Source of the DNA: Escherichia phage Phi1
Reading direction: 5' to 3' (one strand)
Sequence record: EF437941
Length of the DNA: 64,000 nt
The notes beneath the pieces were generated by a model, which did not search any database, had not been told where the DNA came from, and saw only the letters and a program-made list of their open reading frames with translations. Below, in pieces: positions 51,255 to 60,898 of the stretch. Within the stretch, counting starts at the first letter, position 1. Each line of letters opens with the position of its first letter. A program made the position numbers and the translations under genes.

Positions 51255-51677
51255 TTATTGGTCTACCTTCAAAACAACCGCCGACATTTTACCCGCCAGT
51301 CGTTTTGGATTCTCTATAATCATTCGGCAGCATAGACCGTGATATGGCTTACCCTCTTCGATTAGATCTACTGTCATCCCGATCCACATGTTACCGTCAG
51401 TAATTTCTAATCGATTAGGTCGGTCTTCCATTTTCAGGAAGTCGAAGATCTCCGGCAAACGAGTTTCTATCTTATTGAATAGTTCCATTGTCTTATGTTC
51501 ATCAATATGACGATCGGTTAGACGGTCGATCATATGCGGACTAAAGCGAATGAAAATATACTCACCATAACCATCATTCAAGCACTTTTCTTTGATCTTC
51601 GCATTGGTTTTGCGCATTTCGGTTTCGAAGAATCTACGCAGCTTACTACGGCGAACATGTACGTTAATTGTTTCCAT
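51255..51677 (-). CDS. regB: RegB site-specific endoribonuclease
   Basis: RRSKLRRFFETE, RLEITDGNMWIGMTV, CRMIIENPKRLAGK match T4 RegB as remembered; start at ATG after AAGGA. Confidence 0.85.
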   Translation of the reverse strand: METINVHVRRSKLRRFFETEMRKTNAKIKEKCLNDGYGEYIFIRFSPHMIDRLTDRHIDEHKTMELFNKIETRLPEIFDFLKMEDRPNRLEITDGNMWIGMTVDLIEEGKPYHGLCCRMIIENPKRLAGKMSAVVLKVDQ

Positions 51678-51681
51678 TTTA

Positions 51682-52017
51682 TTATCCTTTCTTAAACAAA
51701 TTGCGAATCCAGTATACAAACGGGATTTCTTTAAACTTGAATTTCTCTATAGTTAATTCTTTAGTAGCAAGATGAATACCATAAGCATCATGTGTCACGA
51801 TATGCCATTTTCTATAGTCCAAATGTGAACAACCGTCTGGATCTAGGTTAATAAGAGTTTCTCGCTCACTAGGATTATTTTTCCACAATTTTGTAATAGG
51901 ATCGCACATAATTCGACCTAGCGTACCATGAATAATCTCACAACGGTAAAGTTTTCCAGCAGTGAGATAGGCGCACCCGTCATAGTCGGTATAAACAAAC
52001 ACTTCTTTAACACTCAT
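51682..52017 (-). CDS. paralog family C protein
   Basis: DGCAYL ... DPDGCSHLDYRKW; internal ATG after AAGGAG. Confidence 0.5.
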   Translation of the reverse strand: MSVKEVFVYTDYDGCAYLTAGKLYRCEIIHGTLGRIMCDPITKLWKNNPSERETLINLDPDGCSHLDYRKWHIVTHDAYGIHLATKELTIEKFKFKEIPFVYWIRNLFKKG

Positions 52018-52045
52018 TTTAATACTCCTTTGTTTCGATGGGGGT

Positions 52046-52074
52046 ATATTACTACCCCCGTTTTGTTGTGTCAA
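52046..52074 (-). promoter_or_regulatory. early promoter (PeSL-type)
   Basis: TTGACA-N17-TAATAT within GGGGGTAGTAATATACCCCC hairpin. Confidence 0.5.
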
Positions 52075-52320
52075 CTACTTTTTCAAGATTTTTTTAATTG
52101 CGTTCCAAAGACCTTTATTCTCAGGTTGTTTTGGTTCTTCGATCAGTGTCCAGGTTCGACCGTCTAAGTGTGCACAATTTTTAAGACAAATAAAAATCTG
52201 GTGTCCCTTATCATCACGGATATAACCACTATTCGCAAATCTTTCATGTGGTGTATATTCATACAGTGTATTTGGTGTAATATACTTGCGGTTACTATAA
52301 GGTGTCATCACATACATCAT
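52075..52320 (-). CDS. paralog family C protein
   Basis: NCAHLDGRTW motif. Confidence 0.5.
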   Translation of the reverse strand: MMYVMTPYSNRKYITPNTLYEYTPHERFANSGYIRDDKGHQIFICLKNCAHLDGRTWTLIEEPKQPENKGLWNAIKKILKK

Positions 52321-52511
52321 GGTACTAACTCCCATTTATCACCGCGAAGATGAGAACATCCACCATCAAGAAGGATCGTAATACGAAACCCCGCATCATC
52401 TTCAATATACCCGATAGTCGGTGGATATTCGTCGTCTCGTGCCGGGGTAAAATCATACATCTTTCCCGGTGTGATATCAGTGCCTTTATTGCTATTGGTA
52501 TAAACTTGCAT
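52317..52511 (-). CDS. paralog family C protein
   Basis: GGCSHLRGDKW motif. Confidence 0.5.
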   Translation of the reverse strand: MQVYTNSNKGTDITPGKMYDFTPARDDEYPPTIGYIEDDAGFRITILLDGGCSHLRGDKWELVP

Positions 52512-52532: not shown

Positions 52533-53231
52533 CTAACCACGGGTATAGTGTTCCAGAACAACTGTCAGATGAATATATTCTAATAGATCTTTCCAAAAGT
52601 CAACATCTGGTTCTTCCGGCATACCGTTTTTCTTTGCCTCTTCACGAGCGAGTTTAACACGCTCGTAGAGATCTTTCAATTCTTCCCGCACATTATCAAA
52701 GGTTCTTTCTCCTAACTTACACGCTAAAATAGAAGAACGTCGCGCGAGCGGGAATTGTAGATCACCTGTCTGATAGATTTCAAGTAGCTGATAACCAACA
52801 CGCAGAGCATGAGAAAGATCTTTCCAGTTACTGAAATACTTTTCAGATTTGGCTACCTGTTTCTTGAGATAACCAGACAAACCCCACATCCCAACATGAT
52901 AGAATTTATCGCGATGTGTTCGGATGTATTCCCATTCTCTGGAGGATTCGATCAACATGTTACTAGGAGCGTGCACCATGTCAATAGCGCCGATATCACC
53001 TTTACATGCCAGATTGATAAACCGTTTTAGACTGAACATATTAACGTCAATATCGTCTTTGGTGTTCTTGATACCTTGACCGCTAGTGCTTTGGTCATAG
53101 TGTTCTTTCATCGATCCTAAGATAATTTCTTTCGCAGTCGGAACAAAGATACCACGATAATCTTTATCGGAATTTTCAGTATCAAGGCCGTATAAGTGAG
53201 ATCCGAAGACCATTTTAACCATTGTATGCAT
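52533..53231 (-). CDS. Pol-beta superfamily nucleotidyltransferase (function unknown)
   Basis: 232 aa; N-terminal FGSHLYG-x6-SDKD = G[SG]x(9-13)DxD nucleotidyltransferase signature; helical C-terminal half; GAGGG RBS. Confidence 0.65.
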   Translation of the reverse strand: MHTMVKMVFGSHLYGLDTENSDKDYRGIFVPTAKEIILGSMKEHYDQSTSGQGIKNTKDDIDVNMFSLKRFINLACKGDIGAIDMVHAPSNMLIESSREWEYIRTHRDKFYHVGMWGLSGYLKKQVAKSEKYFSNWKDLSHALRVGYQLLEIYQTGDLQFPLARRSSILACKLGERTFDNVREELKDLYERVKLAREEAKKNGMPEEPDVDFWKDLLEYIHLTVVLEHYTRG

Positions 53232-53275
53232 AATTAAACCCTCAGTTGATTAAGAGATTGCATCATATCATCATA

Positions 53276-53308
53276 AAACGAAAAAGCCAACCCTTTTCGG
53301 ATTGGCTT
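53276..53308 (-). terminator. rho-independent terminator
   Basis: GCCAATCCGAAAAGGGTTGGC hairpin followed by T-run, downstream of grcA-like gene. Confidence 0.55.
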
Positions 53309-53317
53309 GATGAAAAA

Positions 53318-53734
53318 TTAGAGAGATTCGGTAAAGGTACGCGCGATAACGTCACGCTGCTGGTCTGGAGTCAGACTATTGAAGCGCACCGCGTAACCAG
53401 AAACGCGAATTGTAAGCTGCGGGTACTTCTCAGGATGTTCAACAGCGTCCAGCAACATTTCTCGTAACAATACGTTAACATTCAAATGCTGACCACCTTC
53501 GACAACCGGAGCACCATTATCTACAATGACAGGGCGGAAGCTAGTTGTGTGCAGTGCCAGCGAATCGACGTCTTCTGCGGTGATCACATGATCTTCTGCG
53601 AAAGTTTTACTAACAATTACTTTAGCGCCGATCAGTGCTTTCGGTTCGGATACCAGAATCATAGGCGCGAAGTGTCCACCAATAATAGTACCTTTATGCT
53701 CACCTTTCATGATTTGAATTGCTTTAAATTCCAT
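53318..53734 (-). CDS. grcA: autonomous glycyl radical cofactor GrcA/YfiD-like protein
   Basis: 138 aa; C-terminal about 60 aa nearly identical to E. coli GrcA as I remember it ([11 protein letters not shown]...[32 protein letters not shown]). Confidence 0.85.
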
Positions 53735-54417: not shown

Positions 54418-54807
54418 TTATTTTTGGTCTGGGTATTTGCTGTGTGGTAATTGTAGATGAGGACCATCTTTAAACGATACCCAATCCCCACCCCATTCAA
54501 CAGGAACACCCAATTCTCGACCAGCTTGTTTAAATGCATCAGCGATCATGCGGTAATATTTCATATTCCATGTATCTTTATCTTTCGGATACGCTACAAC
54601 GTCAACCGCGAAACCGTGAAGATGACGAGATTTCATAGTCTTAGATTTACCTTCCGCAACATATTTCTTTTGCGTTGCGAGACTACGCACACCTTCCGTA
54701 ATACCAAAATCGACCGGAGTCAGTTCTAACGCACGATGAACGACTTTTACCAGGTCTGGATGTACACCAACAAGCCGATCTTTGCTTCTTTGAGATAATT
54801 TAAACAT
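54418..54807 (-). CDS. endolysin, L-alanyl-D-glutamate peptidase (peptidase M15/VanY-like)
   Basis: 129 aa; SRHLHGFAVDV zinc-binding motif (SxHxxGxAxD) and C-terminal His; occupies the position of lysozyme e. Confidence 0.8.
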   Translation of the reverse strand: MFKLSQRSKDRLVGVHPDLVKVVHRALELTPVDFGITEGVRSLATQKKYVAEGKSKTMKSRHLHGFAVDVVAYPKDKDTWNMKYYRMIADAFKQAGRELGVPVEWGGDWVSFKDGPHLQLPHSKYPDQK

Positions 54808-60427: not shown

Positions 60428-60898
60428 TTACAGTTTGGTCGTCCACTCCAGGTCTAGATCTTCGACATATTCATGAGATCGGACAATCTCTAAATCGAAC
60501 TCTAGGTCAGTGCCAAATTTACGCGCACCAACATCATAAGAAAGCGTGATATGCGGTACATATTCAGGATAATCCCACGTCGCACCTAAAGCAGTTCCGA
60601 TATCGTGTCTGAATTGCATGTAGTCGCTTTCAAATGCCAACACAAGCGCATTAGTACCGGATTGAGTTTCAAACACTTTCAGATGGCATAGAGAGCCTAA
60701 AAACTTTTCACCCTCTTCTGGGATAAACGGAACATAGACACGAGAATATAAGATAGTGCTATGCAGTTTATCACGAGGAACGGCATTAGGCAGATCGTAG
60801 AACTCCTGCAATTTTTCAATGCGGTCTAGTGTATCCTCAGTGAATTTAACAGCCGCATATGTACCTTTAACGGATTCTCGAAACGGGGTCATAATCAA
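60428..60898 (-). CDS. 57B: 2H phosphoesterase, gp57B/Acb1-like (anti-CBASS cyclic-nucleotide phosphodiesterase candidate)
   Basis: 156 aa; two H-x-T/S-x motifs (HSTI, HITL) at the spacing of 2H phosphoesterases; immediately downstream of 57A-like and gene 1 as in T4. Confidence 0.65.
   Translation of the reverse strand: MIMTPFRESVKGTYAAVKFTEDTLDRIEKLQEFYDLPNAVPRDKLHSTILYSRVYVPFIPEEGEKFLGSLCHLKVFETQSGTNALVLAFESDYMQFRHDIGTALGATWDYPEYVPHITLSYDVGARKFGTDLEFDLEIVRSHEYVEDLDLEWTTKL

Follow-up and report, generated by a model that had tools for sequence, protein, structure and literature searches.

The RlaP family of nucleotidyltransferases (NTases) was named by Burroughs and Aravind in 2016 for the adjacency of its genes to those of RNA ligases (as cited in PMC7824862 and PMC12776372), and here we describe a short member of this family encoded in a stretch of 64,000 nucleotides from Escherichia phage Phi1 (sequence record EF437941; the whole stretch is called the window below). 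In the reading that we favour, and hold with fair confidence, the 232-residue product of this gene is a template-independent NTase of RNA 3' ends that performs the refilling step in phage RNA repair, and is the Krischvirus (RB49-type) counterpart of T4 NrdC.11. The gene, its family and the proposed role are already present in databases and in the literature (PMC7824862, PMC12776372). What we add is descriptive, namely a minimal Krischvirus RlaP without the insertion found in T4-type proteins, the apparent repeated loss of that insertion, and the adjacency of repair genes inside the NrdC.11 clade.

Iyer et al. predicted in 2021 that phage RlaP restores, prior to ligation, the nucleotides taken by RNases such as RloC (PMC7824862), and RloC-like nucleases have been described as designed to beat phage repair by way of nucleotide removal. 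The biochemistry of the family comes from Carruthers, Fatma and Huang (bioRxiv, December 2025; PMC12776372), who characterised PfRlaP and PaRlaP of P. fluorescens and P. aeruginosa. These enzymes add one or two nucleoside monophosphates (NMPs) to the 3'-OH of RNA and do not extend 3'-phosphorylated RNA; neither DNA nor protein, E. coli proteins included, is a substrate. They work better with Mn2+ than with Mg2+, also accept dATP and show little specificity among nucleoside triphosphates (NTPs). When offered a mimic of a cleaved tRNA they prefer the 3' end on the anticodon side (a tRNA 5'-half mimic), and they improved the aminoacylation of a repaired tRNA from which a nucleotide had been lost; the authors proposed that RlaP helps to mend tRNAs shortened by nucleases such as RloC. 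In the structure of PfRlaP an N-terminal NTase domain precedes a helical one, the last helix of the chain packs back on the former, and three aspartates are strictly conserved in RlaP (PMC12776372). The same study placed T4 NrdC.11, which it calls "of unknown function", in the family and in network cluster 5, the assayed enzymes being in cluster 1a (PMC12776372). A genome-reduced T4 that remains viable has lost a fragment containing nrdC.11, in keeping with an accessory role that depends on the host (PMC9825161).

The RlaP gene and its family

52533..53231, minus strand: complete coding sequence of 232 amino acids plus stop for the RlaP-family (PF10127) NTase, from the open reading frame list; it starts MHTMVKMVFGSHLYGLDTENSDKDY
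53239..53243, minus strand: Shine-Dalgarno sequence GAGGG, 7 nt 5' of the ATG, read from the sequence
53284..53308, minus strand: intrinsic-terminator-like hairpin, a 10-bp stem followed by a T-run, between the RlaP gene and that of a GrcA-like protein, from a consensus scan
53290-53262: weak promoter-like site, TTGGCT-17-TATGAT with TG, which overlaps the terminator-like hairpin; a candidate only, from a consensus scan

The 232-residue open reading frame, the product of which begins MHTMVKMVFGSHLYGLDTENSDKDYRGIFVP..., is a real gene and not a chance frame, as follows from the number of its homologues and from the manner in which it varies. An exhaustive HMMER scan of 1.84 billion representative proteins returned 3,575 homologues at E<=1e-3, and of 50,697 phage records searched by tblastn, 1,618 contain a homologue. 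In phage records the protein of the Krischvirus RB49 is 100% identical by tblastn, and the DNA of the gene is found at 95-99% identity in 57 records, all of them RB49-like Krischvirus. Across six Krischvirus orthologues, third codon positions account for 27 of the 31 variable nucleotide sites and the pairwise ratio of nonsynonymous to synonymous polymorphism (pN/pS) is 0-0.03; strong purifying selection acts on the gene in this group. A ribosome-binding site is annotated at the identical position in Ec_Makalu_003 and Ec_Makalu_002, and a terminator at the equivalent position in GEC-3S, Makalu_002 and Makalu_003 (in TB34 it is on the opposite strand). The GC content of the gene, 0.41, equals that of its flanks, so base composition gives no sign of a recent foreign origin.

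The Pfam family PF10127 ("RlaP, RNA repair pathway DNA polymerase beta family") is matched with 53.6 bits (E=3.4e-14), the gathering cutoff being 23. The alignment pairs residues 7-191 with positions 24-198 of the 249-position model, and for P0002, the closest of the short-form relatives, it spans positions 23-229. The protein also matches phrog_388, "nucleotidyltransferase" (E=2.1e-79). A search of 5.8 billion proteins gave 288 matches, and PF10127 was found on all 120 of the 120 that were listed, including ones named NrdC.11; among these listed matches a single short relative (57% identity) comes first, followed by T4-like phage proteins of 300-345 amino acids, some named NrdC.11. Beyond Krischvirus-type proteins the best matches are NrdC.11 homologues of 300-350 amino acids, with E values of 1e-45 to 1e-66. 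Judged by these similarities, the protein is almost certainly a member of the RlaP family. The GEC-3S orthologue is already annotated "nucleotidyltransferase" in RefSeq (NC_025425). Labels in other records include hypothetical protein and "putative 38.9 kDa protein" (the old name of T4 NrdC.11), as well as the erroneous "thioredoxin" and "glutaredoxin nrdC".

A preliminary description of this DNA, made from its letters alone, had called the product a Pol-beta family NTase of unknown function, akin in architecture to KNTase, AbiEii/MNT-like and small CD-NTase-like enzymes. The superfamily was rightly recognised, as both the catalytic signature and the Pfam match indicate. To speak of unknown function was off target, given the Pfam RlaP family, the RefSeq annotation and the published proposal for a role. 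As for the kinship, a fold resembling that of kanamycin NTase (KNTase) was recovered by Foldseek, while membership of the named families was not borne out in Pfam, NCBIfam or PADLOC. The Pfam scan matched no family other than RlaP, the AbiEii/MNT, KNTase-type and CCA-adding/poly(A) polymerase families included; the NCBIfam scan gave no match; and PADLOC gave one unrelated match only (10.9 bits, E=0.032).

Several candidate assignments were rejected on these and related grounds. For the KNTase/ANT(4') aminoglycoside NTases there is neither a family-level sequence match nor a close structural one. For AbiEii/MNT, PADLOC gave noise only, Pfam gave RlaP only, and the neighbouring genes are not AbiEi or HEPN. 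Neither a CD-NTase/SMODS model match nor a cGAS-like fold was found that would place the protein among the CD-NTases (CBASS cyclases), and neither sequence homology nor a gene for the HalA channel partner was found that would place it with Hailong HalB. A HEPN-type Rx4-6H motif can be read as R107-x4-H112, but the family consensus has Thr where this protein has H112. The tests that had been proposed on hosts carrying CBASS, Thoeris or toxin-antitoxin systems are off target.

Catalytic residues and predicted structure

53160..53204, minus strand: catalytic signature G10-S11-x10-D22-K23-D24, GSHLYGLDTENSDKD, from a 62-sequence alignment
53046..53054, minus strand: D60-I61-D62, candidate third catalytic carboxylate, on strand 61-67 of the AlphaFold2 (AF2) model and in a conserved KNTKDDID block
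52947..53231, minus strand: N-terminal minimal Pol-beta NTase domain, residues 1-~95, from the AF2 model
52533..52946, minus strand: C-terminal all-helical domain, residues ~96-232, with conserved cleft residues and the terminal helix

The G-S-x-D-x-D signature reported in the preliminary description is indeed present, and its Asp pair holds in an alignment of 62 diverse homologues, in which G10, S11 and D22 never vary and D24 is conserved in at least 90% of the sequences. D60 is kept in 59 of these 62, as is D62, the other three having E at the latter position, and D60 or D62 would serve as the third, metal-binding ligand. The Pol-beta signature (hG[GS], [DE]h[DE]h and a third carboxylate) is thus complete in the phage protein. 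The core residues of the NTase half (G10, S11, D22, D24, N56, D60, D62, D84 and H87) are all retained, as are the core and cleft residues of the helical half (W100, R107, Y121, Q125, K128, W136, K137, S140, H141, R144, Q148, P161, K172 and G174). D135 alone departs from this pattern: 54 of 57 long forms have Asp here, the window protein has Asn, and in three of the five short forms the residue is Asn or Ser. We note separately that in P0143, an independent short-form relative of 258 amino acids, the second catalytic Asp is replaced by Asn (SDTNY and not SDxDY), and this relative may be catalytically impaired.

An AF2 model built with the 62-sequence alignment is confident, with a predicted local distance difference test (pLDDT) score of 97.0 and a predicted template-modelling (pTM) score of 0.92. 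The NTase domain has strands at residues 2-9, 23-30, 44-48, 61-67 and 93-95, together with short helices. Residues 98-230 are exclusively helical (98-201, then a long terminal helix at 210-230), in agreement with the roughly 130 helical residues that had been anticipated beyond the N-terminus. The order of elements (NTase domain, helical domain, terminal helix) is that described for the crystal structure of PfRlaP (PMC12776372).

Foldseek against the PDB recovered no close structure; kanamycin NTase and Hailong HalB appeared at E~1e-4 with TM scores of 0.37-0.50, HalB being the nearest solved fold. A library of predicted viral structures returned the identical protein A0A482GR29 and many NTases of phages, giant viruses and baculoviruses (HE65). 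Sequence searches of the PDB, with the single protein and with the 62-sequence profile, gave chance matches only (haemoglobin and troponin T, E>=0.0075), the PfRlaP structure apparently lying outside the copy searched. The KNTase-like architecture therefore holds at the level of the fold, and the sequence family is RlaP.

The fold matches bear on two other possible activities. For instance, the enzyme might make a short oligonucleotide or nucleotide signal in the manner of HalB (e.g., oligodeoxyadenylate), and so undermine a host defence by which a molecule of this kind is sensed. We regard this as very unlikely, for the resemblance to HalB is that of a shared NTase and helical-bundle fold at 13% identity, HalB does not appear even at E<=1 in the PDB profile search, there is no sequence relationship and no PADLOC defence-family match, and the RlaP enzymes that have been characterised depend on an RNA primer and add no more than one or two nucleotides (PMC12776372). 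Alternatively, the resemblance to kanamycin NTase might point to the nucleotidylylation of a small molecule or a protein, as by KNTase/ANT, LinB or MNT (the last an antitoxin-like AMPylation). This is equally improbable in our view. TM scores here reach just 0.37-0.42, with 10-13% of residues identical, and Pfam, NCBIfam and PADLOC returned nothing for those families. No HEPN Rx4-6H motif is conserved, and E. coli proteins and DNA are not substrates of bacterial RlaP (PMC12776372).

A short form that lacks the T4 NrdC.11 module

52833..52850, minus strand: junction K128-S129-E130-K131-Y132-F133, the site of the ~105-residue insertion of T4-type proteins, from alignments

The closest sequence relatives of the window protein are T4 NrdC.11 ([quoted passage not shown]) and its Straboviridae homologues. 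T4-type NrdC.11 proteins are of ~300-350 amino acids and carry an alpha/beta module of ~105 residues, and it is this entire module that the Krischvirus protein is without. The missing residues lie between a helix ending ...KKQVAKS and the motif NWKDLSHALR, and nearly all close relatives have them. Both motifs that flank the module, KYGxKGSR and YGxRAxxAxxNxGxDW, are absent from the phage protein, which reads ...QVAKS-EKYFSNWK.... The Pfam RlaP model aligns contiguously on short forms and breaks at about model position 142 on long forms, so that the short form has the layout of the Pfam model. On sequence grounds, then, the Krischvirus protein is a short-form relative and not a typical NrdC.11.

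We modelled the T4-type protein P0037 of Escherichia phage Bp7, a long form, with AF2 (pLDDT 94). The module is folded at residues ~132-240, between two helices of the helical domain, and runs helix, two strands, helix, three strands, helix; most of its 10-residue blocks have pLDDT values of 94-97, dipping to 75-86 at the edges, and the flanking motifs are nearly invariant. Sequence profiles revealed no relative of the module in the PDB or Pfam. With a profile of 23 module sequences the best PDB matches were a de novo designed protein (E 0.028) and MTR4 (0.04), and Pfam scans of the 23 members gave scattered single matches, the best being a sub-threshold DUF1409 (E=1.6e-4). Possibly the module is an RNA-recognition element.

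In a neighbour-joining tree of the shared columns (unbootstrapped), short forms stand at three separate places among the long forms, the window protein and P0002 being sister to the long form P0121, and in the alignment the boundaries of the deletion differ between short forms. This suggests that the T4-type module was lost several times. The 57%-identical relative likewise has the short form, at an equivalent genomic position.

One could ask whether the short form is a degenerate, functionless remnant of NrdC.11 left by an internal deletion. Some ~105 residues that almost all close relatives have are indeed missing, and D135 is Asn. We strongly disfavour this idea, to the point of giving it next to no weight, since pN/pS is so low, all catalytic and cleft residues are intact, the model is compact and confident, and the relative at 57% identity keeps both the short form and the position, in a layout contiguous with Pfam RlaP. 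Alternatively, the short-form enzyme might have no part in repair and might instead act upon an immune sensor of the host, either by making short untemplated oligonucleotides in a HalB-like manner or by tagging RNA ends. Were that so, the recurrent loss of the module would signal a switch in substrate; we see only a very slim chance of it.

RNA-repair gene context and proposed function

The context of the family was surveyed in 80 viral loci encoding relatives of the window protein, with single-sequence seeds for Rnl1, Pnkp, Rnl2, RtcB and RtcA together with control proteins, and key neighbours were checked against Pfam. In one locus (L086) the RlaP reading frame overlaps the start of that of an Rnl1-family ligase (PF09511). 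In another (L063) RlaP, an RNA_ligase protein (PF09414) and a Pnkp homologue are consecutive with no intergenic gaps, and this homologue is matched to the Pnkp of GEC-3S by tblastn at E=1e-38 over 98% coverage. A HAD_PNKP phosphatase frame abuts RlaP in L038; RtcB lies 1.5-1.9 kb downstream of RlaP on the same strand in L070, L080, L090, L071 and L027; and in L070 an ATP-ligase-domain protein comes directly after RlaP. These ligase, Pnkp and RtcB adjacencies in the NrdC.11 clade are supportive of a link to repair, in a way that is not statistical.

GEC-3S, the RlaP gene of which is 99.1% identical to that in the window, encodes Pnkp (kinase and HAD_PNKP) and an Rnl1 with the tRNA-specific C-terminal domain, as well as a second, stand-alone HAD_PNKP phosphatase. 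Rnl1 joins a 3'-OH to a 5'-phosphate, these being the ends of an RlaP product, and RtcB is not compatible with that product (PMC12776372). The phage is consequently a better setting for the chemistry of RlaP than an RtcB operon.

By analogy with the bacterial enzymes, we infer for the phage protein an RNA substrate, the addition of one or two nucleotides, a preference in metal and a role in counter-defence. In such a scheme the G10-S11 loop and the carboxylates of D22, D24 and D60-D62 would bind the NTP and two divalent metals, probably Mn2+ as in bacterial RlaP, while the 3'-OH end of the RNA would be held in the cleft between the NTase and helical domains and would receive one or two NMPs. 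During infection a host anticodon nuclease would cut tRNA, that of the RloC type also taking out a nucleotide; phage Pnkp would heal the cut ends to 3'-OH and 5'-phosphate; RlaP would refill the missing nucleotide or nucleotides, chiefly on tRNA 5' halves; and Rnl1, which requires 3'-OH and 5'-phosphate, would seal the break. We consider it likely that the phage protein extends RNA 3' ends. That it serves against anticodon nucleases is, in our estimate, an evenly balanced proposition.

Alternatively, the enzyme might mend the acceptor (CCA) ends of tRNAs nibbled by a host toxin, as a relaxed, CCA-adding-like activity that is independent of any ligase. A Pol-beta NTase acting on RNA 3'-OH would suit this role, bacterial RlaP labels species of the size of full-length tRNA (PMC12776372), and the 64-kb window contains no tRNA genes, so that this part of the genome supplies none. 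We think it unlikely nonetheless. With a tRNA-half mimic the acceptor-side 3' end became a poorer substrate and the anticodon-side end a better one (PMC12776372); an enzyme with little NTP specificity would rarely rebuild CCA correctly; and the signal from gene neighbourhoods is one of ligases and end-healing enzymes.

Several points weigh against a role for the window protein in refilling. An RNA-repair gene lies within 4 kb in only ~10 of the 80 loci, some of which are near-duplicates, and this count has no statistical control. The Krischvirus gene itself is not adjacent to rnlA or pseT, which are ~75 kb away in GEC-3S, and its neighbours in the window (the GrcA-like gene, three small paralogues and regB) include no repair gene. 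In the two distant phage homologues that were inspected, of a mycobacteriophage and a Bacillus phage, no RNA ligase is nearby; the former is near an integrase and a repressor, and the latter adjoins genes of ribonucleotide reductase (RNR). The biochemistry of RlaP rests on two bacterial enzymes in one non-peer-reviewed preprint, with no phage member among them, and loss of the T4-type insertion could alter the choice of substrate.

If refilling is nonetheless the role of the protein, the RNA-repair set of T4-like phages includes a third enzyme in addition to Pnkp and Rnl1, one that puts back the nucleotides which "smart" anticodon nucleases, RloC among them, cut out. The finding opens no new question, and a member of 232 amino acids that is free of the insertion and has a confident model could be a convenient protein for experiments on phage RlaP.

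Neighbouring genes

51255-51719, minus strand, as is the RlaP gene: RegB (Pfam REGB_T4, E=1.6e-48)
51682-52074, 52075-52335 and 52317-52511, all minus strand: three tandem small paralogues of 111-130, 86 and 64 amino acids, respectively (phrog_6261, phrog_15978)
53318-53734, minus strand: GrcA/YfiD-like glycyl-radical cofactor homologue of 138 amino acids, directly upstream of the RlaP gene
54418-54807: endolysin (Peptidase_M15_4, Pfam)
60428-60898, minus strand: Acb1 gene, the Pfam run having been made on its GEC-3S orthologue (L001 1341-1805)
L008 889-1482 and L005 3951-4547: HNH insertion sites in relatives; the corresponding spacer of the window, 53232-53317, contains the terminator hairpin only

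The gene had been located between regB and the endolysin gene, and the Pfam matches to REGB_T4 and Peptidase_M15_4 agree. The accompanying description of this region as variable is apt in part, for some relatives have an HNH insertion just upstream, but the RlaP gene itself is stable, being at the identical position in six Krischvirus loci and in one relative of 57% identity. The insertion is a homing endonuclease gene (NUMOD4/HNH_3) between the GrcA-like and RlaP genes, as found in phage MIZ4 and in a metagenomic relative, and its presence in some relatives and absence from others is typical of homing.

The proximity of regB, ~0.8 kb downstream of the RlaP gene on the same strand and 4.5-9 kb from the NrdC.11 homologue in many T4-like loci, leads us to consider whether the enzyme adds short 3' tails for RNA turnover or regulation, for instance to mRNA fragments cut by RegB or to host RNAs, and so alters their decay or stability. 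Bacterial RlaP indeed labels many cellular RNAs in vitro, including ones of rRNA size, and with little NTP specificity (PMC12776372). This proximity looks like conserved T4-type gene order and not an operon, however, and in GEC-3S a promoter is annotated between the two genes. RegB cleavage leaves 3'-phosphate ends. RNA that is 3'-phosphorylated is not extended by RlaP (PMC12776372), and the tight fusions and adjacencies in the clade involve ligases, Pnkp and RtcB, not RNases. A tailing function thus seems to us improbable.

Genes of the RNR or glycyl-radical kind recur near RlaP genes, namely the nrdC region in T4, the GrcA-like gene here, and NrdH or RNR in two other phages, and a functional tie to them was considered. 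In T4-like loci this proximity looks like conserved gene order: of the 80 loci, 21 have Tk, 16 EndoVII and 11 NrdC. The mycobacteriophage homologue is gene 32 of Mycobacterium phage AvadaKedavra (L011 3995-4747; 23% identity), a temperate phage in which it is close to the integrase and immunity repressor, a setting that may suit a function expressed from the prophage and perhaps not a lytic-cycle repair enzyme.

The GrcA-like protein is nearly identical over its last ~60 residues to the C-termini of E. coli GrcA and PflB, and divergent in its N-terminal half (E=5.8e-33 to PDB 6OWR; Pfam Gly_radical, E=1.5e-16). It amounts to a "spare-part" glycyl-radical domain in a phage that also encodes NrdD and NrdG, and six other T4-like loci have a homologue (48-60% identity) at a distance of 6-10 kb from the NrdC.11 gene. 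The three small paralogues, which come just downstream of the RlaP gene and ahead of regB, have invariant C-x-H-L...W residues in common; in the 57%-identical relative (L005) two similarly sized reading frames, of 68 and 87 amino acids, come after the RlaP gene, a likeness of size only.

Two further observations concern genes that could be confused with, or stand in the place of, RNA ligases. The "RNA ligase" of GEC-3S in RefSeq, between the genes for a 57A-like chaperone and a deoxynucleoside monophosphate kinase, is in fact the anti-CBASS phosphodiesterase Acb1 (PF23474, E=1.5e-51), and this misannotation could mislead searches for RNA-repair genes. At the position of T4 rnlB (RNA ligase 2), GEC-3S has a "DprA-like DNA recombination-mediator protein" (98047-98634; L003 35153-35740), next after the homologue of gene 24 and a good way upstream of hoc. 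No gene annotated rnlB was found in the parts of the GEC-3S record that were read, and no Rnl2 sequence search was made on that genome.

Comparison with known systems

The window protein is nearest to T4 NrdC.11, a protein of a phage of the same kind, with Pnkp and Rnl1, and one with which it shares phrog_388. NrdC.11 proteins are 42-57% identical to its N-terminal half, which is the best conserved part, and homology is clear in the C-terminal helices. The two differ in the position of the gene, T4 nrdC.11 being in the nrdC-mobD stretch whereas the Krischvirus gene is between regB and the endolysin gene and adjoins that of the GrcA-like protein.

PfRlaP and PaRlaP resemble the phage protein in their Pfam family, in their domain order as described, in the three aspartates and in having no large insertion. 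They are distant in sequence, however, and belong to another network cluster than the phage clade. The Pseudomonas rlaP genes are inside rtcB-rtcA operons, whereas the Krischvirus gene stands alone in an early region of the phage genome, with a presumed partner ligase of the Rnl1 type.

The class II CCA-adding enzymes and poly(A) polymerases are, like RlaP, of the Pol-beta superfamily and add nucleotides to RNA 3'-OH ends without a template. They are unlike it in being much larger, with different head, neck and body domains, and RlaP stops after one or two additions.

More remote still are the enzymes that share the fold. HalB (PDB 9DBH), an anti-phage NTase that synthesises oligodeoxyadenylate, has 13% identity and no detectable sequence homology to the phage protein; it is a component of host defence with a partner channel, and nothing in the phage protein suggests the synthesis of oligo-dA. 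For ANT(4'), LinB and AadA, the substrates of which are small molecules, the similarity (TM ~0.4 at 10-13% identity, with no family-level sequence match) is one of fold only.

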